Below are positions 1-32,000 of a stretch of DNA of 32,000 nucleotides, one piece after another (position 1 is the first letter of the stretch; the number at the start of each line of letters is the position of its first letter). The stretch is from Candidatus Saccharimonadota bacterium. Lineage in GTDB: Archaea; Nanohalarchaeota; Nanosalinia; Nanosalinales; Nanosalinaceae. The translations under genes were made by a program, and so were the position numbers. Under the pieces are notes generated by a model. The model saw nothing but the letters and a program-made list of their open reading frames with translations. It did no database searches and was not told where the DNA came from. The DNA lies in assembly GCF_047555085.1 (NCBI RefSeq), contig NZ_CP180230.1:660001-692000 (forward strand), written 5' to 3'.

Positions 1-458
1 GCAAGGCCTAAAACTTTCTTTTCTACATCGATATAGTCCAGAACAAGAAAGGCCTGTAGAAACATCCCCAGATGCGACAGAATCAGGAAAATATACATAG
101 GAAGAGTATTGATCGCCATAAATTCAGTTCTGAACTGGAGAAGTACAAAGACTGTCCAGAGGCCGTACTTGATATTTCCTATAAACGCTAGAGCATGGAT
201 AAGATTCTCTGCGTCTTCAGATAATCTTTCGAGGCCTCCAGAGAGTAAAATATACAGCGAAGCCGATAAAAGCAGTGTTGCTATCGGTGAATCAGCTATG
301 AGAGGCCAGAGATAGAACTCTGTAGCGGATAACTGTGGAATATAGTAGTAGACTCCGAACAATGTTCCAGCAAGATTTACAGCGATCAGAATCTGCAGCA
401 GAGGCCTTTTGAGCAGCGTCTCAGTTAATTTTTCCGGGATGGCCTCTGAAAGTCTCAT
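1..458 (-). CDS. Integral membrane protein, possibly DUF1405 family (partial; C-terminus runs off the window start)
   Basis: This ORF is missing from the supplied track because it is truncated at the window edge. The minus-strand ATG at 458-456 opens a frame with no stop down to position 1. I checked this by hand: MRLSEAIPEKLTETLLKRPLLQILIAVNLAGTLFGVYYYIPQLSATEFYLWPLIADSPIATLLLSASLYILLSGGLERL...YGLWTVFVLLQF...MYIFLILSHLGMFLQAFLVLDY. It has several hydrophobic helices and lies 13 nt downstream of the thiI stop on the same strand. The family name is recalled from memory only. Confidence 0.6.
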   Translation of the reverse strand, partial: MRLSEAIPEKLTETLLKRPLLQILIAVNLAGTLFGVYYYIPQLSATEFYLWPLIADSPIATLLLSASLYILLSGGLERLSEDAENLIHALAFIGNIKYGLWTVFVLLQFRTEFMAINTLPMYIFLILSHLGMFLQAFLVLDYIDVEKKVLGL

Positions 459-471
459 AAGTAATTTGTCT

Positions 472-1602
472 CTAGATCTCTTCTTTTCTGGTGTTTTCCA
501 GCGCTTTTTCCACAAGCTCATCGACGTCAATCCTGCGCTTCAGCTTCTCGAAATCTCCGTTTGACATCCTTGTAGCCGGGCTTTCCGGCGCCATCGTCCG
601 GCACGCAGAATCTATCGAGGCCTCCTCAAAAGTTCCCAGTTCCCTGGCTTTCTCCGTTATCTCAGCTTTTCCACGAGTGAGCAAAGGCCTGTGAATCGGG
701 AAATCTGTGGCAGAAGACGTGTTTCTCATGTTGGAGGAAGTCTGTGAAGATTTCTGCGAGAGGGCCTCGCCCGTCACGATCCCCTGCAGATTCTCCTGCT
801 CAGCGATCTTTTCCGCTATCCCGAACATTATATACCGGTGAAGAAGCATTCTCCCACGGCCGATATCCATTAACTCCTCGTTTACTTCCTTCATGTCAAC
901 GATATAGGCCTCCCAGTCTTTAGAGGGATGGAAACGCTTCAGTTTCTCAACTGAGGCCTTGAAACGCATCAGATGATCCTCTGCAGCAATAGGTCTGTTG
1001 TAGAAATATACAGGAGTTATATCAGAGCCTCGCTTCATTACTTCGTAAGCTGCAACAGGAGAATCTATGCCTCCGCTTATCAAAGCAGCCAGAGGATCTG
1101 CTGCACCGACAGGCATCCCTGAAGGACCTTCAAAAGTTTCTGTGTACATGAAAGCTTTCTCATCCCTTACATCAAACTTTATCCATGTCTCTGGATCATC
1201 AAGATCCACCTCTGCACCAGAAAAGTCCTGTACAAATGTGCCTACTTCTCTATTGACATCCATACTGCTGAAATCATGACTTCCAGAACGATTAGTATCT
1301 ATTCCGAAGCTTTCGCCGATTTCGACATCCTCGGCAGCATTTTTCAAGGCCTCGATCTCTGACTCAAGTTCTTTCACGGGAGAGGCTGATGCAACTCCCG
1401 GCAGCTCTGCTACAGCTTCTGAAGCTTCAGGCCTTGCGTTTTTTACAATTAAACGGCCCGGGATATCAGTAACAGAGTCGTATTCTTCATCTTCATACTC
1501 CAGTCGATCTTCTATCCTCTGTCTCAGGATCTTCACCATTCTTCCACGGACAGAAGCTGATTTAGTGCCGATATCTCCGTATCTTACAAGTATGTGATCC
1601 AT
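472..1602 (-). CDS. thiI: tRNA 4-thiouridine synthase ThiI (THUMP + PP-loop ATP pyrophosphatase, no rhodanese domain)
   Basis: The 376-aa ORF has the PP-loop motif SGGIDSPVAA. Its N-terminus (ILVRYGDIGTKSASVRGRMVKIL) is typical of the ThiI ferredoxin-like/THUMP region. The length matches archaeal short ThiI. Confidence 0.88.
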   Translation of the reverse strand: MDHILVRYGDIGTKSASVRGRMVKILRQRIEDRLEYEDEEYDSVTDIPGRLIVKNARPEASEAVAELPGVASASPVKELESEIEALKNAAEDVEIGESFGIDTNRSGSHDFSSMDVNREVGTFVQDFSGAEVDLDDPETWIKFDVRDEKAFMYTETFEGPSGMPVGAADPLAALISGGIDSPVAAYEVMKRGSDITPVYFYNRPIAAEDHLMRFKASVEKLKRFHPSKDWEAYIVDMKEVNEELMDIGRGRMLLHRYIMFGIAEKIAEQENLQGIVTGEALSQKSSQTSSNMRNTSSATDFPIHRPLLTRGKAEITEKARELGTFEEASIDSACRTMAPESPATRMSNGDFEKLKRRIDVDELVEKALENTRKEEI

Positions 1603-1650
1603 AGGCCTCTAGAATTGATTGCCAGAGAAAATTCAAAAACCTTGGATAAG

Positions 1651-2832
1651 TCAGGTGTATCCTTCCAGGACTTTCGTGTAATCCTTCAGAATTTTTCTTG
1701 AGGCCTCTCTTACTTCATCAACTTTTTCATCCGGGGCGTATACCCGTAGCGCCACGTTCCTCCACTCCGCATCAGTCAAAGCATCCGGAATCGGCGATAA
1801 CTCGCTAAGAGGCCTTATATCACCTTTTTTCTTGACTTTGACATCTATATCGCTGATGCCTGGTGTCGACGGTGTATGGATGATCACTTCATCAGGCCTG
1901 GTATCTGCCTCCTCCGCTATCTCTTTTTCAAGCTTCCTCGGCTTCTTGATACGCCGTTCAAGAGACTTCAGGGCCTCTTTTGGAACATCATCTATGTCCC
2001 ATACAAGCGCTCTCTTGTACAGATTTCTGTCCTTGATCCTGCTGTAAAGTTTTCTGGATGATCCTTTCGAGTTGAGGAGCTTGCTGTGGGCCTCATAATC
2101 GTCTAACTGCATCATTTCTTCGACAGCTATGTTTTCTTCTTCGATCAGATTCTCCAGGCTTCTCTGAAGCATCTTCTCTGCGATCAGAGATGTATGATGA
2201 TTGTACAGAGTCTTTATCATGTGGAAGCGAGCGGTGAAAAGCGATTCCAGGGCCTGTACAGCTTTCTCGCTGAATACAAGTCTTCTCGAATCGATCTCTG
2301 CAAGCCTGATTATAGTATCGTAATCGATCTCTCCGTGTTCCAGGCCTGAGGCATGTGAGTCACGCATCAGATAGTCCATCCTGTCTGCATCGATATCTCC
2401 TGCGACGATCTGTCCGATCTCCAGATCTCCCTTTATGATCTTCTTCACTCTCTGGGATTCCACAGAGTACTCGTCCTCAAGCTCATCTATTATCCTGCAG
2501 GAGAAGTCCTCATGCGAAAAACCGTGTTTCTCAGCTACAACTTCGCTGGCATGTGAAAAAGGGCCGTGCCCCGAGTCATGCAGAAGGCCTGCGATACGTA
2601 ACTCCTGACTCCTCTGATCATCCAGATCCAGGCTCTCCGCGAATCTGCCGGCGATATGCATTACTCCGAGAGAGTGCTGGAAACGTGTATGAGTCGCACT
2701 TGGATAGACAAGTGAAGAGAGGCCTAACTGTCTTATCCTCCTCAGACGCTGCATCTGCGCTGAATCAAGAACATTGACTTCCTCACTGTTTAACTCTATG
2801 TATCCATGCAGCGCATCCTGAATATGCTTCAT
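1651..2832 (-). CDS. HD-domain metal-dependent phosphohydrolase (dNTP triphosphohydrolase-like)
   Basis: The 393-aa ORF carries the HD signature: RFQHSLGVMHIAG ... LLHDSGHGPFSH ... DADRMDYLMRD. Confidence 0.85.
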   Translation of the reverse strand: MKHIQDALHGYIELNSEEVNVLDSAQMQRLRRIRQLGLSSLVYPSATHTRFQHSLGVMHIAGRFAESLDLDDQRSQELRIAGLLHDSGHGPFSHASEVVAEKHGFSHEDFSCRIIDELEDEYSVESQRVKKIIKGDLEIGQIVAGDIDADRMDYLMRDSHASGLEHGEIDYDTIIRLAEIDSRRLVFSEKAVQALESLFTARFHMIKTLYNHHTSLIAEKMLQRSLENLIEEENIAVEEMMQLDDYEAHSKLLNSKGSSRKLYSRIKDRNLYKRALVWDIDDVPKEALKSLERRIKKPRKLEKEIAEEADTRPDEVIIHTPSTPGISDIDVKVKKKGDIRPLSELSPIPDALTDAEWRNVALRVYAPDEKVDEVREASRKILKDYTKVLEGYT

Positions 2833-2887
2833 ACAACAGAGAATACGTGTAACAGAAATAAAAAATCCTCAGAAAAACCTCAAGGCC

Positions 2888-3619
2888 TCAGGCCTCAAGA
2901 ATTTTCTCCAGATACTCCCTGCCTACAGAAACATCAAGTTCTTCATCCATCTCCTTCAGAACTTTTTCACGTCTCCGGGCCTCCTCAACAGCTGACAGTA
3001 TACTTTCCTCTTCAATCCTTGGAACATAGGATACAAGGCCCAGATACTTTTCATCGCTCCTGTCCATCTTCCCGTCCTGAATCATCTCCTCAACTTTCTC
3101 ATCGAATTTTTCAGAATACGATTTCTCTGAAGTGTTCTCCTCCAGAAAATCAAGAGCCTCCTCCTCGGAGACATCTTCATCCCCCATCATCTCCTCGAAC
3201 CTCTGATAGGCCTCCCTGAATCCTCTGCTTGTCTCGAAGGCCTCTACAGCTTCTTCAGGATAGCCGAGGAACTTACCGATATCCTTATTCGTTGCCTGTT
3301 CCATCGGCCTCAGCATGTCAAGTCGCTCCTCTTCATCGGTGAAAAATACCGAGCTGCCGGTGATATTTTCGTCCGTCTCGGGATGCGTATCCTCGACATC
3401 CCTGGTCACGTAGAAGAGATCGAACTCATCTGAGAAATCCTCTACAAATTTTTCAAATCCGGGAGAAAGCTTTTCGAAATGTGCTGTAGTTGAGGCCGCT
3501 GGCTTCTCCCCTATAACGAGGAGAAGTAGATCAAGGGCCTCGTTCACTATCATATGATCCAGAGCGTCTTCAAGCAAAAACTTTTCCAGGGCCTCCGGAT
3601 CGATTTTCCCGGTGTTCAT
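2888..3619 (-). CDS. Acidic hypothetical protein
   Basis: This 243-aa ORF is long and uninterrupted. Its strongly acidic composition matches neighbouring genes. I recognised no motif. Confidence 0.6.
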   Translation of the reverse strand: MNTGKIDPEALEKFLLEDALDHMIVNEALDLLLLVIGEKPAASTTAHFEKLSPGFEKFVEDFSDEFDLFYVTRDVEDTHPETDENITGSSVFFTDEEERLDMLRPMEQATNKDIGKFLGYPEEAVEAFETSRGFREAYQRFEEMMGDEDVSEEEALDFLEENTSEKSYSEKFDEKVEEMIQDGKMDRSDEKYLGLVSYVPRIEEESILSAVEEARRREKVLKEMDEELDVSVGREYLEKILEA

Positions 3620-3706
3620 AAGAAGTCTTTGAGGCCTGGAGACTTAACTAGGTAAGGAAAAAGAAGAGGGAAGAGAAAAAATTGTGGGAGGTCTGAAGAA
3701 AATTTT

Positions 3707-4246
3707 TCAGGTCCTTCTGTCGACGAATTCTTCGACGTCTTCCGCGAATGATTCGAAGCGGCCTTCATAGCTTTCATCGATCACTTCTCCGTCTTCGTTG
3801 AGCGTGCTTGATACATTGGATACAGGCAGATCAGGGCCTGGCTGTCCTCCGTACTCGAGCGTGACGTCGTGTAGATGGCTGAGTGCTCGTACTCCGCCGA
3901 ATCCTCCTCCGGAGACTGTGACGTATGCGAACGGTTTCTCGTCGTACTCCGGGTACATGTAGTCGAGTGCCGTCTTCAGGATTCCAGGGTACGAATGATT
4001 GTACTCCGGTACTACAAGGACTATGCAGTCGGCCTCCAGAATTTTCTCCCTGAGATCCTGTATATCTTCCGGTACAGGCCCTTCATCAGTGTAAGTTCTG
4101 TTGCCGACAGGAGGAATATTTTTCTCCTTCAAGTCGTAGAAAAAAGTTTCATGTCCCTGATCCTGGAACACGTTATCGATTTTCCTTGCTGCTCTGATAG
4201 ATTTCCGGCCTTCACGGGCCGTTCCAACGATGTTTAGAAATTTCAT
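3707..4246 (-). CDS. NADPH-dependent FMN reductase family flavoprotein
   Basis: The motif VVPEYNHSYPGILKTALD is typical of the FMN_red family. I place the start at the internal ATG (4246-4244, MKFLNIVGTAREG...), because the 45 upstream codons of the track ORF look non-protein-like. Confidence 0.8.
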   Translation of the reverse strand: MKFLNIVGTAREGRKSIRAARKIDNVFQDQGHETFFYDLKEKNIPPVGNRTYTDEGPVPEDIQDLREKILEADCIVLVVPEYNHSYPGILKTALDYMYPEYDEKPFAYVTVSGGGFGGVRALSHLHDVTLEYGGQPGPDLPVSNVSSTLNEDGEVIDESYEGRFESFAEDVEEFVDRRT

Positions 4247-4527
4247 AAAGTAGACAGAGTTCTGAATTCTTTTAACCTCTCCGAAAACAATAAACAACAT
4301 GACACTGGAAAATCTTGCCTCAGGCCCGATCGGAGCATACATCGTCACAGGCCTCTTCTTCCTGGTACTAACGTTTTTCATACTGAATGAACTGGGCCTC
4401 GTCAGAAACAGTGAAGACGAAACTGAAGATCCTGAAGACTACGAAAGCTAGGAAAAAGTTTAAAAACAGAGAATGTAATACTTTGTATTACGATTGTGCG
4501 GTGCTCTTGTCACCAACATATCTTTCT

Positions 4528-5487
4528 CTATTTTTCAGGCTTCTCAGCGTAGAAATCAAGCTGTGCGAAAAGCTCTTGCTTTCCAGCAACGTACTGATAT
4601 CTTGCAGTAGTCAAAAGATCGTTCAACTGACTATAACGCTTTCTACTGTACTCAAAATCATTTTTATCTCCCAATCCTGTCCTTTCGCTGAATCCGGCTG
4701 CAGCACTTGCCAGCTTCAGTCTTGCCGCCACATAAGGCCTTGACAGAATCGATAATCTGTGTAGATAGCTGGATGTAGGCCTTATCCTATCCTGAATATG
4801 CTGTTGGCGTATATTCTCGAATCCTGCATCTTCCAGGTATTTCCTGAAATCGTCTATGTGCGCAAGATAGTCTACTCCCCATCCTCTATGCATTTTTTCG
4901 GCTATTTTTTCGTCTTCAGCGTCAAAACGTTTTATACGGAAGCCGTCCGAGATTATCAATCTTCCACCAGGATTCAGGGCCTCGTATACCTGTTCCAAGA
5001 GTTTTTCCTCGTCTTCAGAGTGACACTGGCTTTCGATCGCAAAGTAGACATCGAAATCTTTTACAGGAAGTTCATCAAAGTTCCCTACAACAAAACGTGT
5101 CCTTTCCTCGACTCCGTGTTCTTCAGCTTTTCTGCGGGCCTCCTCTATACTTTCTTCATCTATATCAAGGCCTATCACGTCCGCTCCCGTGTTTTCAGCT
5201 ATCCATACAGCGTTTCCTCCTCTCCCGCATCCGGAATCAAGCACGGTATCTTGTTCCGTGATATCTGCTTTCTCTGCCAGGTTCTTCACCCTGTTGACAA
5301 CAGATTCTCTGACTTCTTTTCTTGACACCAGGCCTGTCTTTGAAATAATTTTTTCCGTTAGAGAGCGTTCATAATCCGAGTGATCTCCATAATGCATCAT
5401 GCCGTGTTCCCCGGTACCCATTTTCTCATTGTAGTCCTTGGAGTTCAGATCATAATGCTTTTTCATCCGTTCCTTGTCCTCTGTCAT
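4528..5487 (-). CDS. Class I SAM-dependent methyltransferase
   Basis: The 319-aa ORF has SAM-binding motif I (VLDSGCGRGGNA), followed by GLDIDEESIE and a LNPGGRLIISD post-motif. The substrate is unknown. Confidence 0.8.
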   Translation of the reverse strand: MTEDKERMKKHYDLNSKDYNEKMGTGEHGMMHYGDHSDYERSLTEKIISKTGLVSRKEVRESVVNRVKNLAEKADITEQDTVLDSGCGRGGNAVWIAENTGADVIGLDIDEESIEEARRKAEEHGVEERTRFVVGNFDELPVKDFDVYFAIESQCHSEDEEKLLEQVYEALNPGGRLIISDGFRIKRFDAEDEKIAEKMHRGWGVDYLAHIDDFRKYLEDAGFENIRQQHIQDRIRPTSSYLHRLSILSRPYVAARLKLASAAAGFSERTGLGDKNDFEYSRKRYSQLNDLLTTARYQYVAGKQELFAQLDFYAEKPEK

Positions 5488-5503
5488 AAGTAATGAATAC
5501 CTC

Positions 5504-5710
5504 TCAACCTATTTTTATTCTCCCGCCCTCAGGCCTGAAACGGGCTCCGGATTTGAGTACAATTTTTTCCGCCGTCAGATCAAATACTCCCTGCCAGAGG
5601 CCCGAGATACGGGCTGAACGAGCCACAGATATACTGGCCGGCACCGAAGATGTGAAAATCGAATTTTCCTCCGAAGTGAAATCCGAATCCACATCATAGG
5701 CCTCTAGAAA
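5504..5710 (-). pseudogene. Diverged duplicate of the 3' end (last ~65 codons) of the LamG surface-protein gene
   Basis: The frame is open from 5710 and reads FLEAYDVDSDFTSEENSIFTSSVPASISVARSARISGLWQGVFDLTAEKIVLKSGARFRPEGGRIKIG. This aligns with the C-terminus of the 832-aa protein, GEAYDIDSEFESKSTAVFEAFQNSASISVNSSARISGLWRGIFDLNAERITLTAGARFRPVNGTIRIG. Similarity stops at an in-frame TGA (5713-5711). The only in-frame start is GTG at 5692. Confidence 0.7.
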
Positions 5711-5787
5711 TCATAAAGTGAGAAAAATTAGTGATATGCAAATAGAAAAAATTCTGTGGACTGGTCTCCCAGGCCTCTGTTGAAGCT

Positions 5788-5982
5788 TTAAGCTTCTGTG
5801 ACGTTGACTGCCTTTGGTCCTCGATCTCCTTCTTCCTGATCGAACTCGACTTCAGCTCCTTCTTCAACGCTAAATCCTTCGTCCTGGTCTTCCTTGTGGA
5901 AGAATACGTCATCATCCATCTCTTCAGTTTCTATGAATCCGTAATTCTTCTGATCGTGGAAGAACTTTACTGTACCTTTCAT
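5788..5982 (-). CDS. csp: Cold-shock domain protein (CspA family)
   Basis: MKGTVKFFHDQKNYGFIETEE...DVFFH contains RNP1/RNP2-like motifs (KGFGFI-like, VFFH). I place the start at the ATG at 5982-5980 rather than at the track's upstream start. Confidence 0.88.
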   Translation of the reverse strand: MKGTVKFFHDQKNYGFIETEEMDDDVFFHKEDQDEGFSVEEGAEVEFDQEEGDRGPKAVNVTEA

Positions 5983-6047
5983 AAAATAACACCTCCTTGT
6001 ATAGATAGAGATTAAATCCGAAGCGTTATAATGCAAGACATTAATTT

Positions 6048-8546: not shown

Positions 8547-8565
8547 GAAAAGTATTTGGAGGCCT

Positions 8566-8575
8566 ATAAATAAAA
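8566..8575 (-). promoter_or_regulatory. Candidate TATA box for the LamG gene (leaderless-type spacing)
   Basis: The minus strand reads TTTATTTATA, then AGGCCT. The ATG at 8546 lies about 24-25 nt from the box centre. Confidence 0.4.
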
Positions 8576-8722
8576 TGTATAGACTGTTCTAGATAACTTC
8601 TCTCAGGACTCTGAGAAAGTTTCCGTGAGTGATTTTCGCTATCTCTTCTTCCTTGTATCCTCAAAAAAGGAGAAATAAACCTCGACATAGATATTTAACA
8701 GGCCTACGGACAGATGACAGAG

Positions 8723-8730
8723 TATAAAAA
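8723..8730 (+). promoter_or_regulatory. Candidate TATA box for the TauE-like gene
   Basis: TATAAAAA starts 27 nt upstream of the ATG at 8750. This spacing fits a leaderless archaeal transcript. Confidence 0.4.
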
Positions 8731-8749
8731 TTCTCCAGGCCTCAAATAG

Positions 8750-9502: not shown

Positions 9503-9540
9503 ACACCAAAAACTCAACGTATAGAGTATAAAGTTGAGAA

Positions 9541-9557
9541 TAAAATTTGGCAGGACC
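9541..9557 (+). repeat. Left copy of direct repeat TAAAATTTGGCAGGACC
   Basis: It matches 11955-11974 (TAAAATTTTTTGGCAGGACC) apart from three extra T. Together the two copies bracket the two minus-strand genes at 9637-11849. Confidence 0.4.
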
Positions 9558-9636
9558 TACAAATGTCCTAGAGAACTTGAGAACTTCGTCAAATCAAGAG
9601 AAATGAAGGCTCCTCCTAGGCCACTTTCAGTTTAAA

Positions 9637-10802: not shown

Positions 10803-10868
10803 GAATTTACTAACAACTTTACTAAAACTGTTGCCAGTTTATGGAATTTTGAATCCAGTTTTGGATAA

Positions 10869-13582: not shown

Positions 13583-13583
13583 G

Positions 13584-23321: not shown

Positions 23322-24904
23322 AAGCCAATCTCCTCCAGATTCTGTTCGATTTTTTCTTGAAGTTCGTTGGATTTCTGGAAGTTTTCCCGGAGGTCTGCAG
23401 AGAGTCGTTCCATTTTCTGCTCGAATGGTTCATCGTCCCCGTCCTTTTCTTTGACTCCTACGTATCGTCCGGGTGTGACGATGTAGCGGTTGTCAGCTAT
23501 GTCATCAGTTTCTGCTACTTTGCAGAATCCTTTCTCGTCTTCGTATTCGCCTGCTTCGTCTTGTCCTCTGTAGGCTCTAACTGTTTCTGCTATCTTGTTG
23601 ATGTGTTCGTCTTTGAGGACGTTCTGTGTCCTGTCTACGCTTTCGTACATTTCTCTGGCATCGATGAACAAGGTTTCGTTTTCTCTATCCCTGTACTGGT
23701 CTGTGTCTTTTCCTCTGCTGAGAACGAAGATACAGGCAGGAATTGAAGTTGTAAAGAATAATTCTTTTGGTAGGGCGATTACTGCGTCGAATAGGTCGTC
23801 TTCGATTATTTCTTCCCTGATTTCTCCTTCCTGTCCCTGTACGGACATCGCTCCGTTTGCCATTACTGTTGCAGCCATCCCATCATCTTCGTCCAAATGG
23901 TTAATCATATGCTGCATAAAAGCATAGTTGGCATTGTTGCTTGGAGGCATTCCGTATTTGAACCGTGGATCATCATCAGGAATTGTGCTTTTACCCCAGT
24001 CTTCCATATTGAAAGGCGGATTCGTTATGATTCGATCTGCTTTCAGACCTTGATGTTGGTCATCTCTGATGCTATCACCGAGTTTGATTTCTCCGTCCAT
24101 TCCTCGAAGCAGCAGGTTCATCTGGCAGATTTTCCACGTATCTTCCTTAATCTCCTGTCCGTAGATCGAGATGTTGCTGTCATCTTTTCCGTGTTCGTGC
24201 AGGAAGTTCTGGCTCTGGATAAACATTCCTCCTGAACCACAGAAAGGATCAAATAGTCTTCCTTCATATGGTTCGAGGATTTCGACCATCGTTTCTACTA
24301 CGCTTTTTGGAGTGTAGAACTCTCCCCCTTTGCTGCCTTCTTCTTTGGCGAACTTCTTGATGAAGTACTCATAGACTCTACCGAGTAGATCGTGATCCTC
24401 CTTGGCTTCTCCATTTTCATCTTTTCCATTTGAGAAGTCAAGATCTGCGAAAAGGTTGAGTAGTCCTTCTACGGAGTCTGTTGGTATTCGTGAGCGTTCG
24501 TATTTGGTTGGAAGCATTCCCTGTAGTTCAGGGTTTTCTTCCATTATGCCTCGCATCGCATCGTCGATTTTCTTTCCGATGTCTGGCTGTGTGGCGTTTT
24601 TGACGAGGTAGTCCCAGCGGCTTTGTTCCGGGACGAAGAATACGTTTTCTTTGTAGTATTCATCTTTGTCGTTTAGTATGTATTTTCTTTCTTCTTCGTC
24701 TTCTGTGTAGTAGTCCGAGTCTTCGTCTTTCATCAGTTCTTTGAGTTCTTGCTGTCTTTCTTCGAACGCATCGGACATATACTTCTGGAATAGAAGTCCT
24801 AAGACAATATCCCGGTATTCTGTGGAAGGTACTGGTCCTCTGAGTTTGGTTGCTGATTCCCAGAGCTTGTCTTCGAGTTCATTATCTCCGTTATCTAAAG
24901 CCAT
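23318..24904 (-). CDS. hsdM: Type I restriction-modification N6-adenine DNA methyltransferase subunit (HsdM)
   Basis: The 528-aa ORF has the HsdM_N pattern (LWESATKLRGPVPSTEYRDIVLGLLFQKY). It also has the SAM motif DPFCGSGGMF and the catalytic NPPF (IITNPPFN). Confidence 0.93.
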   Translation of the reverse strand: MALDNGDNELEDKLWESATKLRGPVPSTEYRDIVLGLLFQKYMSDAFEERQQELKELMKDEDSDYYTEDEEERKYILNDKDEYYKENVFFVPEQSRWDYLVKNATQPDIGKKIDDAMRGIMEENPELQGMLPTKYERSRIPTDSVEGLLNLFADLDFSNGKDENGEAKEDHDLLGRVYEYFIKKFAKEEGSKGGEFYTPKSVVETMVEILEPYEGRLFDPFCGSGGMFIQSQNFLHEHGKDDSNISIYGQEIKEDTWKICQMNLLLRGMDGEIKLGDSIRDDQHQGLKADRIITNPPFNMEDWGKSTIPDDDPRFKYGMPPSNNANYAFMQHMINHLDEDDGMAATVMANGAMSVQGQEGEIREEIIEDDLFDAVIALPKELFFTTSIPACIFVLSRGKDTDQYRDRENETLFIDAREMYESVDRTQNVLKDEHINKIAETVRAYRGQDEAGEYEDEKGFCKVAETDDIADNRYIVTPGRYVGVKEKDGDDEPFEQKMERLSADLRENFQKSNELQEKIEQNLEEIGF

Positions 24905-25000
24905 ATAATGTAATTAATTAAAGACAGACTTAACAAATTTCGTGGAATTATTCGAAAGAGAACATTAGCGACTTTAAATTGAGGCTCAACTACTTCAACT

Positions 25001-26014
25001 ATGACTGCTTCCAGAAATCAAATTATCTCGGATGCAAGAGTGTTGACAGCTGATTATTTGCCGAATAAACTTGTACATAGAGATGGGGAGAGGCAGGAGA
25101 TTGCAAGGAATTTGAGGCCTCTGATGGATGATGATATTCCTACGGATATGCTTCTTCACGGGCCTCCGGGCACAGGAAAGACAGCAATGGCGAAATACGT
25201 AGTAGAGGAATTACAGAAAGAGGTATTCGTCAATACCAGTTATGTCAACTGCTTCAGCCACAAATCAAGATTTGAGATCTTCTACGAATTACTAGATGAG
25301 AAACTGAAAGTTCCCAGAGACAGCACCTCCACAGAGAAAGTAATTGAAAAATTTGAAGAAAAGGTAAGGAAGAGGCCTACAATCATAATTATTGACGAAG
25401 TTGATCAGATAACGGAAGATGAAGTATTATACGAACTAAGTCGTTTCCAGAAGGCAGGCATCATCTTCATCGCCAATGATGCCAACACCTTCTCACATTT
25501 TGAGGATAGAGTAAGGTCCCGTATCAGTGGAGTAAATAGGATCCGGTTCAAGAGATACAGCAAACAACAGCTCACTGATATACTGAAGCTTCGAAGGAAG
25601 CACGGCCTGAGAGAAGACTCAGTAAAAACATCACAACTGAAGAAGATAGCTTCCAAAGCTGGTGGCGATGCAAGAGTCGCCGTAAACACGTTGCGCTTGG
25701 CGGCAAGAAAAGCTGAAAGCAAAGGCCTAGAAACAATAACAGATGAAATCATCAAAGATGCTGTTAATGATGCTTACGACGAGGAAGAGCTGGAGTCGCT
25801 GGAGCGCTTGAACAGCCATCAAAAGAAGGCCTACAAGCTCCTACAGGAAAACGGCCCTATGCAGATCGGAGAACTTTACGACAAATACGAAGACGACGTT
25901 AATGACAGTAAATCACGGAGACAACTACTCCGATACCTGAAGAAGATGGTGAGTTACAACATCCTTGAGACAGAAGGATCAAAAAGCTCCACAACATACA
26001 GTATAGCAGAATAG
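25001..26014 (+). CDS. orc1: Orc1/Cdc6 AAA+ replication initiator
   Basis: The 337-aa ORF has Walker A (HGPPGTGKTAMAKY), Walker B (IIIIDEVDQ), sensor-2-like GDARVAVNTLRLA and a C-terminal winged helix. Confidence 0.9.
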   Translation: MTASRNQIISDARVLTADYLPNKLVHRDGERQEIARNLRPLMDDDIPTDMLLHGPPGTGKTAMAKYVVEELQKEVFVNTSYVNCFSHKSRFEIFYELLDEKLKVPRDSTSTEKVIEKFEEKVRKRPTIIIIDEVDQITEDEVLYELSRFQKAGIIFIANDANTFSHFEDRVRSRISGVNRIRFKRYSKQQLTDILKLRRKHGLREDSVKTSQLKKIASKAGGDARVAVNTLRLAARKAESKGLETITDEIIKDAVNDAYDEEELESLERLNSHQKKAYKLLQENGPMQIGELYDKYEDDVNDSKSRRQLLRYLKKMVSYNILETEGSKSSTTYSIAE

Positions 26015-26026
26015 GCCTGAACTCCA

Positions 26027-26131
26027 ATGAGTCGAGAAGATGCTAAAAACTATCTCCTCTGGATTATTCTCATCGCTTTCATATTCGCTGTACCGTTCTT
26101 ATCAACTACTGTTCCTACACCTGCTACCTGA
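26027..26131 (+). CDS. Possible 34-aa single-pass membrane peptide
   Basis: This ORF is not in the track. It encodes MSREDAKNYLLWIILIAFIFAVPFLSTTVPTPAT and lies 12 nt after the orc1 stop. The only evidence is the ORF itself and its hydrophobic core. Confidence 0.25.
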   Translation: MSREDAKNYLLWIILIAFIFAVPFLSTTVPTPAT

Positions 26132-26223
26132 GTTACAGAACTCTTTCTACGACACTTACGACACCCGAGAAACGGCTTAAATAGGGTCTCTGCACCAACA
26201 TATACATACAGAAAGAGAAAGTC

Positions 26224-26958
26224 GTGAAGACTGGCCCTCACGACAAGTACGCCTCTGGGGAGGGGATCCTACCAATTTCTTTTTTAGAACAACAAAAGAC
26301 ACAGACCGTTGAAAGAGAATCCGCTGAGAAAGAAGTAATCCTGAAGACAAAACCAGATATAGTCACTGGCATCAATCACGTGAAGAAGGCAAGGGAGTTG
26401 CCTATATTTCAGGCCTTTCTAAGCTCAGAACTCCAAGGAAGCAACGCAAAAGCTGTATGGATAGATACCGGCAACGAGGCCTCCACTTACTCTCTCAGCG
26501 CACTAGGGAATCCACAGCTTTTGGAGCAGGTGGAGATAGGTAGAGCGTTCACAGTTTTCCAACACCATAACTTGATTCATCAACTTGACGAGTTCATTGG
26601 CGAAAATACAGATATCTTGGTGTTGCCGAATTTCGACGAATTGTACTTGGATGGACAGGTGAAGGAGTGGGAGGCTGAGGAGCTCTTCAAGGAAAGCTGG
26701 AAGAAAATCAGGGAGATACAAGAGGAGAAAGAGTTGAAAGTGCTGATCTCTTCCTCAGGGAACTCTAAGATGTCCCATATACTTGAAGCAGATTCCGATA
26801 ACAAGATCGAAGTTGATTCAACGAGTAGTGGCCTCAAATACAGCTCTGAAAACTATCAGCAGATGATGTATAAGGAACAAGGTTCTCTACAGACTACTTT
26901 GCCTTACTGGTCCAGAAAAAACCGTGAAGATGTCAAAGTAACCGCCAGAACGGTGTAG
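26224..26958 (+). CDS. Hypothetical protein with degenerate RecA/RadB-like core (no Walker A)
   Basis: The segment AKAVWIDTGNEASTYSLSALG...VEIGRAFTVFQHHNLIHQLDEFIGENTDILVLPNFDELY resembles the RadA/RadB region from the 'YIDTE' strand to Walker B. No GxxGxGKT is present. It starts with GTG. Confidence 0.5.
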   Translation: MKTGPHDKYASGEGILPISFLEQQKTQTVERESAEKEVILKTKPDIVTGINHVKKARELPIFQAFLSSELQGSNAKAVWIDTGNEASTYSLSALGNPQLLEQVEIGRAFTVFQHHNLIHQLDEFIGENTDILVLPNFDELYLDGQVKEWEAEELFKESWKKIREIQEEKELKVLISSSGNSKMSHILEADSDNKIEVDSTSSGLKYSSENYQQMMYKEQGSLQTTLPYWSRKNREDVKVTARTV

Positions 26959-26964
26959 AGAGTT

Positions 26965-27240
26965 ATGGGGCGTACGAATTCTACTTACAGGAATCATCTG
27001 GATAACTTTATAGATGGATTCAAGCCTTTCAGACAGGCCTTGAGAAAGGAAAACAAGCAGCATCTGGATTCTTTATGGGAGAAAGCGCATCAGTTTGCTC
27101 AAGCAGGCGCCTACTTGAACTCTAGTCAGCCAAGTCTTCCGGCCTTTATCTCGATGATGCTTGGTGTGCAGAAGGAGGCCTCTGAGAACAGAAAGCAGAT
27201 CGAAGAACTGAAGGAGAGAGTGGAGGAGTTGGAGAGTTAA
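26965..27240 (+). CDS. Small helical/coiled-coil protein
   Basis: The 91-aa ORF has a C-terminal heptad-like NRKQIEELKERVEELES. Its stop overlaps the polB ATG (TAATG at 27238-27242). Confidence 0.55.
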   Translation: MGRTNSTYRNHLDNFIDGFKPFRQALRKENKQHLDSLWEKAHQFAQAGAYLNSSQPSLPAFISMMLGVQKEASENRKQIEELKERVEELES

Positions 27241-29336
27241 TGGTTTTCAAGATCGATTTCATAGATGGCGAGACTGTATCTTGGACGAAGACTAAATCAG
27301 GTGTCGAAGCAACACGCCACAGAGAGTACCGGCCCCGGTTCTACTTGGAAGGAAGTAAGTCAAAGCTTCAGAAAGCACGTCCGTGGCTGTCACAGAAAGA
27401 CGGAGTGGTAGCTACCTCTTTCGAGCACTGGAAGCCTACACTATCGAAGCCAGAAAAAGAAGTACTCCGCATAGATGTGGAAGATAATGAAAAATTGAAA
27501 TCAACGGCATATAGATTAAAGAGGAACTTCGGTCGCTCCACATTCAAATTCTACAACGTAGGATTTTCACCGCAGTTCCGCTTCTGCCTTCAAAAAGAGA
27601 TTTGTCCGGTACCTGAAAACGATTTGAACAGAGTTGAACTCAGTCTACATCGGAGACATATCGCAGATCAAGATATATCGCAACTGAAACTGAACGGAGA
27701 ACAAGTTCAAGGAAGCGAAAAAGAGGTGCTTAGTACGCTTCAAAGTTACTGGGAGCGCAGGAATCCTGATATAATCTTAGTGAATCGTAGTCAAGTGCTG
27801 GAGCTTCTCAAGGATAAAATGTCTGAGTACAAGGTCTCTTTTCCGCTTGGACGGATCGACAAGTTTCAGCAACTTGCAGGAGAGAACACAGTCAGCAGCT
27901 ACGGCAGAACAGTACACAGTTCCGCAAGATACAATGTCCCCGGGAGAATAGTAATCGATAAATCAAACAGCTTCCTGCTAGGAGAAGCAACGATTGAAGG
28001 CCTCTGGGATCTTGTCAAGAGAAGCTACAGGCCTATGCAGGAACTAGCGTGGGGGAGCATCGGACGACTATTAACTAGTATCGAAGTCCGGAGAGCCTAT
28101 CTTGAAGAAGATACTTTGACGCCTTGGAAGAACTGGAGTGGTGAAAAACCGAAGAAGGCTTCTACACTGCACAAGGCTGATAGAGGAGGATTCATTTTCA
28201 ATCCAGAGCCCCGGATACATCGAGATGTTTACGAGGCAGACTTCGCAAGCTTGTTCCCCAACATAATGGTGGAGAAGAATATCAGTCCTGAAACGGTATG
28301 CTGCGACTGCTGTGACAATAATAGAACTCCAGAACTAGATTACAGTATCTGCGAGAAACAAAAGGGTTTCATATCGAAAGTATTGAGGCCTTTAGTAGAA
28401 GATCGTCAAGAGATGAAGGAAAAAGTAGATGACATAGAAGATGAAGAGGAACACCGATACATTCAGGGGAGTATAGATGCCATCAAATGGATACTCGTCT
28501 CTTGCTTCGGCTATATGGGTCACAGCCACGCCTCTTACGGTGCTATCAAATGCCATCAGGCTATTCAGGCCTTTGACAGAGACATAATGGTGAGAACAAA
28601 AGAAATGTTCGAAGAATCCGGATACGGCGTCTCTCACGGCATAATCGATAGTATCTGGGTGCAGGAAGAAGAAAACTCCCGAGATTTCGAGGACGTATGC
28701 GAACAGATTTCAGAGGAAATCGGTATCAAGCTGGAGCCAGAGTACAAGTTTGAATGGTGCGCTTTCGTGCCTCGTAGTGGTTCAGAGGCCGATATCGCCA
28801 CACTCAACAGATACTTCGGGAAGAAAGAGAACGGCGAGTTCAAGACAGCAGGCATAGAAACAGAACAGAGATCTACCTGTGAGTTCATCAAAGATGCACA
28901 GATGGAGATGATAAAGGCCTTAGATCAAACAATGTCGGCAGAAAGCGTAATACGTGTAGTCAAAAATCATATCGATATACTTGGAAGCAAGGAAGTAAAT
29001 CCCGAGGCCTTAGTAAAAGAAAAGAGAGTCTCCAAGCCACTAGAGGCCTATAAAGTAGAGAATCGCTCGGTATCAGCATTGAAAAGAGCGGAGCATCACG
29101 GTATTGAAATGAAGCCGGGCCAGTCTATCAACTTCATAGTGAAAGATGATGACGCAGATCCTATCGACAGAACACGACTGGACTTTGAAGCACAACAAGG
29201 AGATTACGATGCATTATTCTATACTACAGAACTGATACGAGCAGCGGAATCAATTCTATCGCCGCTTGGATTAGACAGAGAAGACATAAAGAGAAGGATA
29301 CACGGCGGAAATTCTAAACTGAGAACTTATATTTGA
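27240..29336 (+). CDS. polB: Divergent family-B DNA polymerase (PolB2-like) with degenerate exonuclease and partly degenerate polymerase motifs
   Basis: The archaeal PolB N-terminus is present (FKIDFIDGE...YRPRFYLEG). Motif A (DFASLFPNIM) is intact. Motif B reads KWILVSCFGYMG and motif C reads HGIIDSIWV, which keeps one Asp of DTD. The expected Exo I (FDIET) position reads VELSLH, and Exo II (NxxxFD) reads VNRSQVLELL. The KKRY/RGxxxRRD region reads GKKEN...AGIETEQRS. At 698 aa it is short for a replicative PolB. Confidence 0.8.
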   Translation: MVFKIDFIDGETVSWTKTKSGVEATRHREYRPRFYLEGSKSKLQKARPWLSQKDGVVATSFEHWKPTLSKPEKEVLRIDVEDNEKLKSTAYRLKRNFGRSTFKFYNVGFSPQFRFCLQKEICPVPENDLNRVELSLHRRHIADQDISQLKLNGEQVQGSEKEVLSTLQSYWERRNPDIILVNRSQVLELLKDKMSEYKVSFPLGRIDKFQQLAGENTVSSYGRTVHSSARYNVPGRIVIDKSNSFLLGEATIEGLWDLVKRSYRPMQELAWGSIGRLLTSIEVRRAYLEEDTLTPWKNWSGEKPKKASTLHKADRGGFIFNPEPRIHRDVYEADFASLFPNIMVEKNISPETVCCDCCDNNRTPELDYSICEKQKGFISKVLRPLVEDRQEMKEKVDDIEDEEEHRYIQGSIDAIKWILVSCFGYMGHSHASYGAIKCHQAIQAFDRDIMVRTKEMFEESGYGVSHGIIDSIWVQEEENSRDFEDVCEQISEEIGIKLEPEYKFEWCAFVPRSGSEADIATLNRYFGKKENGEFKTAGIETEQRSTCEFIKDAQMEMIKALDQTMSAESVIRVVKNHIDILGSKEVNPEALVKEKRVSKPLEAYKVENRSVSALKRAEHHGIEMKPGQSINFIVKDDDADPIDRTRLDFEAQQGDYDALFYTTELIRAAESILSPLGLDREDIKRRIHGGNSKLRTYI

Positions 29337-29485
29337 AAAAATGAGGCGTATAGCTGTATGTAAATTTGCATATTTACGCCAGTACCTAAGAGACGTGCTG
29401 AAACGCTTGAAAAACAATCTCCTATTTTTAATATATGGAAATCTAGGGGAATCTCGTAAAAGCTTGTAGTAAAATATTCCTATGT

Positions 29486-30157
29486 ATGATCGAAAGTATT
29501 CTTTCCTCTCTTTCGGGTTCAGTAAGTAATGTGCTTTTGATGATTTTCACAGGATTTCTGGCATTATTCTCACTCCTTCAATTTTGTTCGCTGAGGAAAC
29601 AAGAGGAAATATTAGAGAAAGAATACAAACCCGATCCAGAATTATATTTGGAAGAAAAAGACCGGCCTGTTCTTTGTATCCATAATAATGGTGGAAGTTC
29701 AGCAGTCCGGGTAGAAGTGGAATCTTACAACAACTCTGATGCCGATACCTACGAAATGGATGGAAGAACAGCTGAAATACCTGTAATAGAACCTATGGAG
29801 ACAGTGAAAGTAGAAATAATGCGTTTAAGCAAAGAAGACTCTCTCCTTAAAACACATCCTACGATTCACAAATATGTTGAGAAGGTAGGAGATGGAGACC
29901 TAGATCATTCGGATCTTAATATTACGATAGAAGTTGGCTATAAAGATTCTAGAGGAGAGCATCATATTGAAAGAAGAGAGTTCAATCTAATAGAAGATAT
30001 TTCCACAGAAAATGGAATAATCAGAGAAAAAGACCCTTATAGAGAAATAAGCTATCAATTGAGTGAGTTAGATGATGCTGTCAGGGGTGTAGGGAATGCC
30101 TTGGCGGAATTCAAAAGGTACGTACAGCGAAGAGATTCAGAAAGTTCTGAAAATTAG
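29486..30157 (+). CDS. N-terminally membrane-anchored hypothetical protein
   Basis: The 223-aa ORF has one TM segment (VLLMIFTGFLALFSLLQF) followed by a soluble domain that looks beta-rich. I recognised no family. Confidence 0.55.
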   Translation: MIESILSSLSGSVSNVLLMIFTGFLALFSLLQFCSLRKQEEILEKEYKPDPELYLEEKDRPVLCIHNNGGSSAVRVEVESYNNSDADTYEMDGRTAEIPVIEPMETVKVEIMRLSKEDSLLKTHPTIHKYVEKVGDGDLDHSDLNITIEVGYKDSRGEHHIERREFNLIEDISTENGIIREKDPYREISYQLSELDDAVRGVGNALAEFKRYVQRRDSESSEN

Positions 30158-30311
30158 ATATTTGGTAGATTTTAGCTCAACATATTTGGCTCTAAGCCGG
30201 AAGGCCTCTGGGAGCTTCCTGTTTTTCATACCTTAGAGAGAATTCCAGTACTCCGATAGATATAGTCCCTCCCTGTCAATATAGGAAGATTATCCTCTAT
30301 CAGATATTTTT

Positions 30312-30542
30312 ATGTCATTAGAATACTGCCCGAACTGTGGAGAAGATCTCACCCAGTACAGAAGTGAGGACGAGGAAGAAACCTCGATCTCGGATCTCGA
30401 TATGTCAAAGGAAGAAGTTAGAGCATTCCTCCATCTCGCCATAATGAAGCGTGAAAGAGCCGAGGAGCTGAACGAGAGAGTTGATAACGATAAGATACTC
30501 GAATGGAAAGACGCTATAGAGGAGAAAATAGAGAAAAAATAA
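30312..30542 (+). CDS. Small acidic protein with N-terminal CxxC motif
   Basis: The 76-aa ORF begins MSLEYCPNCGEDL and has a helical acidic tail. Only one CxxC pair is present, so the zinc-ribbon call is tentative. Confidence 0.45.
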   Translation: MSLEYCPNCGEDLTQYRSEDEEETSISDLDMSKEEVRAFLHLAIMKRERAEELNERVDNDKILEWKDAIEEKIEKK

Positions 30543-30554
30543 GGGAGTCGCCCG

Positions 30555-31976
30555 TCATATACTTCCCTTTAACTCCTCGATCACGCCTTTTTCTTCTATA
30601 TAATCACTTATTGCTTCCTCCAGCTTCTGTTTCTCTTCATATGCATCTCCTCCAGATTCGGATCTGTTGTGGCACTTTAACTCTTCGTCAGCTTCCTCTC
30701 CACAGTCTGGACAGTATTTCTGTAGGTCCGAAACCAGTTTTCCGCAACTACATTCCCACGGCTTCAAGCTGTTGTCATTGAACTTTCTCTCACTTTCAGT
30801 CAACTCTTCTCCGTAGTCTTCTCTTACACCTGCAAGAACACTCTCCTGCATTAATTCGATGTAGTGCTTAGGAGCATCTGAAGTCTTACTCCACCCAAAA
30901 AATGCTCGAAGAAAGTTCTCGTTTTTATCCTGTGCCGCCCAGTATAGGGCTCGAGCATCTCTCCAGAACCAGTGTGGCTTCTTCGTAAGTTGGTCAGGAA
31001 CTATATCTTCTCGTTTGGCCTGTTTCAAAATTCTCTGTAATACCTGTCTCATATCGTTTCCTGTCATAGGCTTCCTTCTTTTATCCGCCTCGGCCGCTTT
31101 ACCTTTCCAAGAGCAACCATCTCCCTGACAATGATACGTTCTCCGGTGGTATGCAGTATTCCTGTCAGCGTCTAAATCTTTGGTACCGCATTTCGGACAT
31201 CGATTCTCCTGATTATTCTGCTGGAAAACAGGTTCTGAAAGATCTGGATTTTCCCTATTTTGCAGCTGCTTCATAACGGGCATTGAGGCCCGTACAGGGA
31301 TTTCTCTTTCACCGCTTTTACCTCGAAGTGTTACATACATCTCGCTGCCATCGAATCTGATGTCCTTCCACTTAATCGGCTCTGGATGCTGGTGGTGGTC
31401 GGCTGTTTTACCCATTTCTCCTATCCTTGCTCCTGTTGCCCATCCGAAAAGTATCAGACAACGGTCACGAATGTTATTTGCCTGCTCTGCCACCAACTTG
31501 ACGTGTTCTGGAGTAGGCCGAGTATGGATGTCAATAGTAGTAGAAAGATCTACATTTACATCGAGGTCATCGACTAGTTCAGGGCCATCAAGCTCTTTGT
31601 TAAATCCTTTGCCCTGCTTCTTGATGAATTTGTTGTAGAAAACTCTTACAGCTTTCCAGAAATCATTCTTACTGTGGTCACTGTAACACTCTCCGTTCAT
31701 CTTCCTTAATCCATCAGTGTTCAATGCGTTGACGATCCCCTCAATATCTTTCTTTTCAGCTTGATCGAGAGGAAAGTCAATCAGTTCGGCGAGTCTGTTG
31801 AACCGGCTTGCATAATCTTTCAATGCAGTTTGTCCGGTCCCTTTGCTCCCCATCTTGCGGAAGAACTCGTTAAGGACTTGTTTGTTGTGATTGCTGATTT
31901 TAGAATTTTCAGAAAGTTTACGGTGGTTCTGTTCTACAGAGTCGAATGTCATATTGTCCGGTTCTTGGGTCGCCAT
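30555..31976 (-). CDS. int: Tyrosine recombinase/integrase with one internal and one C-terminal zinc-ribbon motif
   Basis: The 473-aa ORF has Arg-I in WATGARIGE, a beta-hairpin Lys region (LRGKSGEREIPV), PHWFWRDARALYW (H..R region) and FGWSKTSDAPKHY (W/H + catalytic Tyr). The Cys clusters are CPKCG...CQGDGC (inserted within the catalytic domain) and CSCG...CPDCG (C-terminal, after the catalytic Tyr). Confidence 0.8.
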   Translation of the reverse strand: MATQEPDNMTFDSVEQNHRKLSENSKISNHNKQVLNEFFRKMGSKGTGQTALKDYASRFNRLAELIDFPLDQAEKKDIEGIVNALNTDGLRKMNGECYSDHSKNDFWKAVRVFYNKFIKKQGKGFNKELDGPELVDDLDVNVDLSTTIDIHTRPTPEHVKLVAEQANNIRDRCLILFGWATGARIGEMGKTADHHQHPEPIKWKDIRFDGSEMYVTLRGKSGEREIPVRASMPVMKQLQNRENPDLSEPVFQQNNQENRCPKCGTKDLDADRNTAYHRRTYHCQGDGCSWKGKAAEADKRRKPMTGNDMRQVLQRILKQAKREDIVPDQLTKKPHWFWRDARALYWAAQDKNENFLRAFFGWSKTSDAPKHYIELMQESVLAGVREDYGEELTESERKFNDNSLKPWECSCGKLVSDLQKYCPDCGEEADEELKCHNRSESGGDAYEEKQKLEEAISDYIEEKGVIEELKGSI

Positions 31977-32000
31977 ATGTTAGATTTCGAAAGGTTCCTC

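Follow-up and report, generated by a model that had tools for sequence, protein, structure and literature searches.

Gene Content of the Window and Abundance of AGGCCT

The window considered here is a 32 kb stretch from a DPANN genome, that of the nanohaloarchaeon Candidatus Nanosalina sp. VS9-1 (contig NZ_CP180230.1, positions 660,001 to 692,000). It carries a chromosomal neighbourhood around thiI, a series of restriction-type defence genes, a block with orc1/cdc6 and a type B DNA polymerase gene, and the gene for a tyrosine integrase. Scattered unevenly among these genes is the palindromic hexamer AGGCCT, which occurs 83 times by exact count. The mean count in 100 dinucleotide-preserving shuffles of the window is 5.87 (standard deviation 2.41, maximum 13), an excess of about 14-fold. 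AGGCCT ranks first among all hexamers of the window; its observed/expected ratio under a zero-order model is 15, and that of any other hexameric palindrome is at most 2.6. A maximal-order Markov model leaves the word unflagged because the pentamers AGGCC and GGCCT are almost wholly copies of the motif itself. The over-representation is real and strong, as an earlier sequence-only reading of this DNA had proposed.

The 12 bases on each side of the copies show no conservation, so the unit is the bare hexamer; a longer motif or a mobile mini-element was considered and is ruled out by these flanks. The same abundance is found in 62.6 kb of pooled core DNA, made up of window positions 1-9560 and three syntenic loci of relatives (L002, L004, and L006), in which 298 copies are present and 11-19 are expected, depending on the background model. 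Sites in the pooled core are spaced in a near-Poisson manner on a local scale, that is, within stretches of up to 32 kb (coefficient of variation 0.96), and pairs less than about 20 bp apart are scarce (6 observed, about 20 expected, with impossible overlaps set aside).

Mosaic Distribution of the Hexamer

Six segments of the window differ in AGGCCT content. The native chromosomal segment (1-9560) has 52 copies (5.4/kb); it includes a DUF1405 fragment, thiI, and the genes for an HD hydrolase, hyp243, a flavin mononucleotide reductase, an S-adenosylmethionine (SAM) methyltransferase, a LamG protein, and TauE, and it is syntenic with L002, L004, L006, and a further relative, L010. Segment A (9561-17400) is a motif-poor island segment with 3 copies and encodes hyp110, a protein with an HSDR_N-type nuclease domain, three hypothetical proteins, and a GmrSD type IV restriction enzyme. 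Segment B (17401-21100) is intermediate, with 11 copies (3.0/kb), including a cluster at 19864-19932; it spans an intergenic stretch, hyp164, the gene for a DUF4747 protein, and the C-terminal two thirds of hsdR. The N-terminal third of hsdR lies with hsdS and hsdM in segment C (21101-25000, minus strand), which has no AGGCCT. The host-like segment D (25001-29400, plus strand) has 16 copies (3.6/kb) and contains orc1/cdc6, hyp244, a DUF8156-like open reading frame (ORF; 26965-27240), and the gene for the type B DNA polymerase (PolB). Segment E (29401-32000), with one copy, contains hyp223 and the tyrosine integrase gene (30555-31976, minus strand).

At the core rate of 5.4/kb, segments A, C, and E would hold 42.6, 21.2, and 14.1 copies, respectively; the Poisson probabilities of the low counts observed are 4e-15, 6e-10, and 1e-5. 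In segments B and D the counts greatly exceed chance (P = 2e-10 and 7e-16) and fall only slightly short of the core rate. The density is therefore far from uniform on exact counting, and the approximate series of the sequence-only reading (about 60, 3, about 11, none, about 17, and one, in window order) agrees closely with the exact one (52, 3, 11, 0, 16, and 1).

That reading also took the absence of the hexamer as a mark of foreign DNA, a view that gene content and relationships bear out. The motif-poor genes encode the HSDR_N protein, GmrSD, the type I proteins HsdM and HsdS, and the integrase, and the guanine-cytosine (GC) content is 0.36-0.40 in part of this DNA. Among the matches listed, the relatives of HsdM that have a name belong to the Halobacteria (65-72% identity; 67% for Haloferax volcanii), and the named relatives of ThiI are all nanohaloarchaeal. 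HsdM has a native-like GC content (0.445) and codon usage, yet AGGCCT and GGCC are both absent across 3.9 kb. In these genomes AGGCCT density is a sharper mark of imported DNA than GC content or codon usage. Segment C lacks GGCC (4.9 expected) and CATG (11.3 expected) altogether, which suggests that the hsdMSR cassette evolved where enzymes cutting GGCC and CATG were active. A cassette with 79-84% nucleotide identity lies on a 6 kb contig (L131, GCA_001563825.1; window 19121-24904 aligned with L131 452-6008). It has no site in hsdM or hsdS, and three sites in its hsdR match window positions 19906, 20181, and 21006; because the site pattern is shared, the split inside hsdR is older than the VS9-1 genome. 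The cassette points to an exchange of defence genes between the host and symbiont groups.

The orc1-polB block had been proposed to be either chromosomal or an old resident, and this holds for the polymerase end of the block. PolB scores above the NCBIfam cut-off of a type B DNA polymerase model; its named relatives, among the matches listed, are all nanohaloarchaeal (45-76% identity). In L010 a hyp-DUF8156-PolB unit lies 3.7 kb from the cluster of thiI and the HD gene, and four of the seven PolB sites are common to the window and L010. The evidence covers the hyp-DUF8156-PolB part of the block, which, judged from this synteny, is native chromosome. Since PolB is native by synteny, the DNA from TauE to orc1 (approximately 9.6-25 kb) is an insertion in an old neighbourhood.

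The borders of the island show no convincing direct repeats, no tRNA match, and no Rfam match, and the tyrosine integrase has no relative in the IMG/VR virus database. Within the island, the convergent ends of hyp251 and the GmrSD gene flank an inverted repeat (14864-15049), possibly a terminator or a small mobile element, whose 33-nt arms are 79% complementary and separated by 120 nt.

Coding Context and Intergenic Sites

As the sequence-only reading had it, AGGCCT occurs in all codon phases and in intergenic DNA. In the listed ORFs of the window the three phases, read as R-P, E/K/Q-A-x, and x-G-L, hold 15, 30, and 16 copies; the middle phase (xAG GCC Txx, for the most part Glu-Ala-x) has twice as many copies as either of the others. 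A further 22 copies lie outside listed ORFs. When codons are permuted within each gene, keeping protein sequence and codon usage, the window genes hold on average 12.1 copies (maximum 22), against the 61 observed. In the pooled core, site density is 6.9/kb in intergenic DNA and 4.5/kb in coding DNA, and this greater intergenic density is reached although the intergenic GC content is only 34-40%.

The 30 nt before start codons hold 18 sites, compared with 3-13 in each of nine other 30-nt bins within 150 nt of starts. Sites upstream of thiI, hyp243, and ileS recur in orthologous loci. The site at 1603-1608 touches the thiI start codon, as had been noticed from the sequence, and L002 and L006 keep a site 0-12 nt upstream of thiI; a promoter-proximal site 12 nt upstream of the hyp243 ATG (3632-3637) occupies the same position in L002. 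Likewise confirmed are the sites that had been described for the LamG and TauE genes, which fall between a TATA-like box and the start codon: one at 8560-8565, between the box ttttatttat and the LamG start codon, and two upstream of TauE (8700-8742), the second between tataaaaa and the ATG. The distance from TATA-like box to site varies from 0 to 13 nt or more. Among the few closely spaced pairs is the double site AGGCCTcAGGCCT at 2883-2895, between the start of the HD gene and the stop of hyp243. The 560 nt between the SAM methyltransferase and LamG genes (5488-6047) contain three AGGCCT, short ORFs of at most 82 amino acids, and no Rfam match.

Conservation of Sites and Effects on Proteins

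Conservation was measured in codon alignments of ten orthologous genes, with other hexamers as controls. From L002 to L004, 74% of AGGCCT sites are conserved compared with 31-34% of controls, and from L002 to L006, 56% compared with 17% (p = 1e-8); from the window, 64% of sites are conserved in L002 (controls, 24%) and 57% in L006 (controls, 15%). Positional conservation of AGGCCT is approximately 2-3.5 times that of control hexamers. Restricting the comparison to positions with identical amino acids strips out protein-level constraint; 83-100% of AGGCCT sites are then kept, compared with 29-46% of control hexamers (in one case, 21 of 22 sites compared with a fraction of 0.29 in controls, p = 9e-11). 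The locus pairs L002/L003 and L004/L005 are 99.97-100% identical and hence uninformative on site turnover.

Contexts are termed compatible where the amino acids allow AGGCCT to be encoded by synonymous choice: R-P, E/K/Q-A followed by an amino acid with a T-starting codon, and x-G-L. In enriched genomes 66-100% of such contexts are occupied, and R-P pairs are spelled AGG-CCT in 70-100% of cases. Occupancy elsewhere is 1 of 27 in the island genes of the window, 0 of 49 in the relative L007, and 11 of 42 in L008. Compatible contexts number 14-18 per 1000 amino acids in enriched genomes (82-86% occupied) and about 10 in the same orthologous proteins of non-enriched genomes; lineage-specific sites mostly coincide with amino-acid replacements in variable stretches, such as E-K-F to E-A-F. 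Both the extra contexts and the replacements at new sites lead to the conclusion that pressure for the DNA word has altered proteins.

Synonymous choice is directed at each of the six letters, the outer A and T among them, so that the bias is not limited to a methylated cytosine. Creation of sites by a multi-nucleotide "writing" of AGGCCT was considered and rejected: 6 of 10 differences between L004 and L002 are single changes, as in controls. At unshared sites of L002 and L006, three to four of the six positions differ more often than in controls. Because single changes prevail in the closer pair (L002 and L004), ordinary point mutation suffices.

AGGCCT is thus subject to a directional force at the DNA level that acts on the whole hexamer, is lineage-specific, and extends to all resident DNA, in three codon phases and in non-coding sequence. 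The force keeps existing sites and converts nearly every compatible amino-acid context. The sequence-only reading had proposed positive selection or a generating mechanism in the host lineage, and the conservation, the near-frozen synonymous positions, and the occupancy of contexts all support it. The defence island, which arrived from lineages without the force, lacks AGGCCT.

Distribution among Relatives

Densities in relatives were measured at loci syntenic with the thiI region. AGGCCT is the top hexamer in L002 and L003 (ThiI 81% identical to that of the window; 5.1-5.6/kb), in L004 and L005 (79%; 3.7-3.9/kb), and in L006 (65%; 5.0/kb), and L010 (54-56%) has 78 copies in 22 kb. Core segments of this enriched clade hold 19-23 times the expected number. 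Enrichment is weak in L001, a Nanohalobium (ThiI 55%; 4.7-fold by base composition, 4.0-fold by dinucleotide expectation), and in L008 (59%; 2-fold), and L007 (58%) has 1 copy in 21 kb.

Drawn via ThiI alignment, 80 further metagenomic loci extend this range. Of 45 low-GC loci of nanohaloarchaeal type, 17 have at least 10 times the expected number, 3 have 3-10 times, 17 have 0.5-3 times, and 8 have less than 0.5 times; the last class, pooled, holds 2 copies compared with 21.6 expected. In 45 high-GC loci (650 kb of haloarchaeal-type DNA), AGGCCT is at expectation, with 81 copies compared with 84.6 (0.125/kb). In a ThiI tree the window group (the window, L002, L004, L006, L010, L135, and L137) is uniformly enriched, 10- to 23-fold, and three more enriched clusters are interleaved with neutral or avoiding lineages. 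The trait is nearly bimodal, close to on/off, and patchy across the Nanohaloarchaeota, and its state evidently changes between fairly close relatives. In the literature searched, no paper connects AGGCCT with nanohaloarchaea or remarks on its abundance there.

Depletion of a recognition word, as under classical type II restriction, is the opposite of what the window clade shows (about 20-fold enrichment), and is present in L133, L148, and L007. L133 (1-21122) has no AGGCCT (4.7 expected) while its GGCC count is normal (35, with 39.6 expected), so in this lineage the hexamer itself is avoided. In L007 (1-21149) and L148 (1-21122), GGCC is avoided as a whole, with 9 compared with 56 expected and 3 compared with 24.8. 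By these counts, avoidance of AGGCCT or GGCC in some sister lineages looks like the usual mark of restriction.

Several further observations concern these loci. In ileS of L008 (13225-16290), all five AGGCCT lie at positions common to the enriched clade, though L008 as a whole is only about 2-fold enriched; these sites may be a relic of a past enriched state or reflect a weaker force. In the window, L002, L006, and L010, hyp243 and thiI flank the HD-domain gene, which L004 lacks; a 285-nt gap (4918-5203) is all that is left there. In the enriched clade the words GCGC and CGCG reach half the expected number (50 compared with about 100 in the pooled core), which is not so in non-enriched relatives; CTAG stands at 0.33 times expectation in enriched and non-enriched groups alike.

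Viruses of the clade were sought with a three-site AGGCCT pattern scan of IMG/VR, which returned chance matches and tandem arrays. Two arrays, in L128 (6700-8430; AGGCCT about every 73 nt, in pairs 6 nt apart) and L121 (588-1092; every 63 nt), are unrelated to the dispersed motif. One viral contig, L069 (1-11862, IMGVR_UViG_2791354938_000002; GC 0.43), has 26 scattered AGGCCT in 11.9 kb and encodes a tailed-phage structural module of terminase, portal, protease, major capsid, and tape measure proteins; it has no match among reference phages.

One-off Variants of the Hexamer

Words that differ from AGGCCT at one position fall into two classes in the pooled core. Variants at the outer positions are in excess: GGGCCT/AGGCCC occurs 67 times, with about 14 expected, and CGGCCT/AGGCCG 35 times, with 13-25 expected. 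The four inner positions give variant counts that match expectation or fall short of it (0.5-1.2 times), and GGCC outside the A...T frame is not enriched. AGGCTT/AAGCCT is not depleted. The other C-to-T neighbour, AGGTCT/AGACCT, occurs 22 times in enriched and 54 times in non-enriched relatives, in equal lengths of DNA. A force on six positions together with a C-to-T neighbour that is not erased means that a repair bias at a single methyl-cytosine position is insufficient.

Candidate Explanations

AGGCCT is proposed to be a highly iterated palindrome in a subset of Nanohaloarchaeota that includes VS9-1, an archaeal counterpart of the cyanobacterial highly iterated palindrome 1 (HIP1), probably tied to a StuI-type methyltransferase; this reading is held at about even confidence. 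The reader of the word would be a dimeric, type-II-like enzyme, as suggested by a palindrome identical to the StuI site, by avoidance in relatives, and by a patchy on/off state like that of restriction-modification genes. The likeliest candidate would be a StuI-type (AGGCCT) DNA methyltransferase without an active cognate endonuclease on self DNA. The densely methylated word might then serve as a mark of self or kin in repair, recombination, or DNA uptake, each added site being favoured through selection or through methylation-coupled biased repair, and the determinant would be gained and lost among lineages. Such gain and loss would account for a distribution that is patchy and on/off, and also for sister lineages in which AGGCCT or GGCC is avoided like any ordinary restriction target. 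Alcanivorax borkumensis has an active restriction-modification system that recognises AGGCCT and methylates cytosine (PMC12128166), and the nanohaloarchaeon Ca. Nanohalococcus occultus SVXNc has active Dcm-like cytosine methyltransferases, whose specificity, GDGcHC, is unlike AGGCCT (PMC11001535).

Several results weigh against this proposal. An AGGCCT methyltransferase was not found in the window or in flanking loci by a motif screen of about 45 low-GC loci; this screen for catalytic motifs returned only HsdM-type matches and two unrelated ORFs in non-enriched loci. Of the proteins encoded in the window, only the type I HsdM is a DNA methyltransferase, and the SAM methyltransferase of the core segment (4528-5487), tried as the AGGCCT enzyme, matches small-molecule methyltransferases only. 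The island carries a GmrSD-family enzyme, and some members of that family attack DNA with modified cytosine, which is awkward beside about 5 modified sites per kb. The deficit of AGGTCT/AGACCT depends on the background, since the 22 copies compare with 43 expected under a first-order model and with 19 under a second-order one. The ThiI tree, built from one gene by neighbour joining, carries no support values, and the number of gains and losses read from it is unreliable. Finally, the data fit selection for a function and a neutral repair ratchet alike; the two are not separable here because any strong directional force gives conservation and saturation.

An artefact of base composition, codon usage, or an acidic, Glu-Ala-rich proteome has practically no chance of being the answer. 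It would account for the doubled frequency of the Glu-Ala-x phase; the observed/expected ratio, however, stays far from 1 after control for dinucleotides (5.9 compared with 83) and for codons (12.1 compared with 61), every phase and non-coding DNA are enriched, relatives of similar GC content and the same lifestyle have about the expected number or no copies, and island genes with an equally acidic proteome have none. The shuffles and the intergenic density together rule out a codon or dipeptide artefact. A more serious contender, though an unlikely one, is that AGGCCT is a functionless by-product of biased repair, in which a methyltransferase together with a very-short-patch endonuclease, a Mig-type T/G glycosylase, or Elhai's methyl-directed ratchet turns near-sites into the word. 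Horst and Fritz reportedly described in 1996 such a pairing in Archaea, a GGCC methylase with the T/G glycosylase Mig.Mth on plasmid pFV1. A conversion bias at each site would yield near-saturation of contexts; AGGTCT/AGACCT is halved relative to non-enriched relatives, and outer one-off variants accumulate while inner ones do not, as predicted by the ratchet model (PMC4390886). If only the methylated cytosine is corrected, however, the choice at six positions, including the outer A and T, is left unexplained; a 20-fold excess fed through one neighbour would be expected nearly to erase that neighbour, which is not observed; and a purely local bias does not predict the deficit of sites less than about 20 bp apart.

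That same deficit fits a protein footprint, and a dimeric binder suits a palindrome. AGGCCT might thus be the site of an abundant non-methylating protein, such as a nucleoid, segregation, or global transcription factor, with weak positive selection on each site; site density peaks in intergenic DNA and in the last 30 nt ahead of starts, sites upstream of ileS, thiI, and hyp243 are conserved in orthologous loci, and a nucleoid role is favoured for HIP1 by Xu et al. (PMC5861425). This account is nonetheless improbable, as 85% of sites lie within genes and follow no positional rule, the TATA-to-site distance is variable, and the on/off state with avoidance in sister lineages points to enzymes of the restriction-modification type. 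Quite unlikely, too, is an uptake or kin-recognition signal of the kind known from Neisseria and Haemophilus, in which the word spreads by molecular drive and separates own or kin DNA from host DNA. The word is dense in the core and absent from recently acquired DNA, its sites gather in variable, tolerant parts of proteins and change amino acids there, and its density is about 5/kb in the symbiont compared with 0.125/kb in the high-GC host-type DNA. This roughly 40-fold contrast would, speculatively, make AGGCCT usable as an uptake tag. Known signals are, however, 9-12 nt long and non-palindromic, and a hexamer gives little specificity; we know of no competence or uptake system in nanohaloarchaea. 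Neisserial uptake signals often sit as inverted pairs at terminators, whereas close AGGCCT pairs are scarce. HIP1 itself is now proposed to be a methylation-dependent uptake signal (preprint 10.64898/2026.06.24.733823).

An extended form of the methyltransferase proposal gives the word a role in symbiosis. A methylated AGGCCT would be a self or kin tag by which the DPANN symbiont tells its own DNA (about 5 sites per kb) from contacted or scavenged haloarchaeal host DNA (about 0.1 per kb); the tag's self-driven spread through recombination or repair would reshape proteins, and its determinant would hop between lineages, switching them between hyper-accumulation and avoidance. This fuller scenario is offered as a rather doubtful one.

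Significance

To our knowledge, hyper-abundant palindromes have in 30 years been studied almost only in cyanobacteria, with their cause disputed among nucleoid selection, methyl-directed repair, and an uptake signal. AGGCCT provides a second system for this old problem, in another domain of life. It is also a stronger case: at about 5/kb it is near saturation, its state is on or off among close relatives, and the same word is avoided in sister lineages. This opens comparative tests of what gene tracks the state, at what rate acquired DNA gains sites, and whether site-creating alleles are favoured. Motif density separates native from imported DNA in nanohaloarchaeal genomes and could aid the binning of nanohaloarchaeal contigs in hypersaline metagenomes.

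Comparison with Known Systems

Like AGGCCT, uptake sequences are frequent in the core genome and scarce in DNA of recent acquisition. The uptake signal sequences (USS) of Pasteurellaceae and the DNA uptake sequences (DUS) of Neisseriaceae gather in tolerant protein regions and change peptide composition. USS and DUS are, however, non-palindromic words of 9-12 nt, present at about 1/kb and with a known uptake receptor, whereas AGGCCT is a bare 6-nt palindrome. In very-short-patch systems, exemplified by Dcm and Vsr at CCWGG in E. coli and by M.MthTI with Mig.Mth at GGCC, methyl-cytosine repair drives the sequence toward the methylated word. The archaeal M.MthTI/Mig.Mth pair acts on the core of AGGCCT; known very-short-patch effects stay below about 2-fold and touch only the methylated cytosine, in contrast to an excess of about 20-fold at six positions.

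Active restriction-modification usually leads to site avoidance, and VS9-1 shows the opposite. The StuI-type system of Alcanivorax borkumensis SK2 recognises the same word and methylates cytosine on both strands; its genome has 1674 AGGCCT (PMC12128166), which, unlike the state of VS9-1, is no hyper-abundance.

HIP1 of cyanobacteria (GCGATCGC) is likewise an over-represented, GC-rich palindrome, with an excess of 15- to 300-fold (PMC5861425). Both words occur in and between genes, are conserved among genomes above background, and have one-off variants biased to the outer positions (PMC4390886). A conservation test of the kind used here led Xu et al. to argue for selection on HIP1 (PMC5861425), and Elhai, noting that unusual hyper-abundant palindromes each accompany cognate methyltransferases, proposed a repair ratchet (PMC4390886); HIP1 is tied to cognate methyltransferases in the literature, with its function debated. 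AGGCCT differs in being a hexamer rather than an octamer, in belonging to DPANN Archaea rather than cyanobacteria, in having coding contexts close to saturated, and in its density, about 5/kb compared with a ceiling of about 1/kb for HIP1 in Elhai's model (PMC4390886).

Closer in form are the alternate highly iterated palindromes of cyanobacteria, GGCGCC in Calothrix PCC 7103, rCCGGy in Oscillatoria PCC 10802, and GCsGC in Cyanothece PCC 7822. Like AGGCCT, these are short (5-6 nt) palindromes that are type II restriction-modification specificities, and their excess is of similar size (GGCGCC has an observed/expected ratio of 15.5 in Calothrix D253; PMC4390886). Their phylogenetic spread is sporadic, and in other strains the same methyltransferases go with site avoidance (PMC4390886), as may be compared with the avoidance in sister nanohaloarchaea. 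The alternate palindromes belong to single strains, whereas the AGGCCT state is common to whole clades that have diverged to 54-64% ThiI identity; sites shared across that divergence imply long persistence. AGGCCT is best filed as an archaeal instance of the highly-iterated-palindrome phenomenon, unusually dense and switching among relatives.

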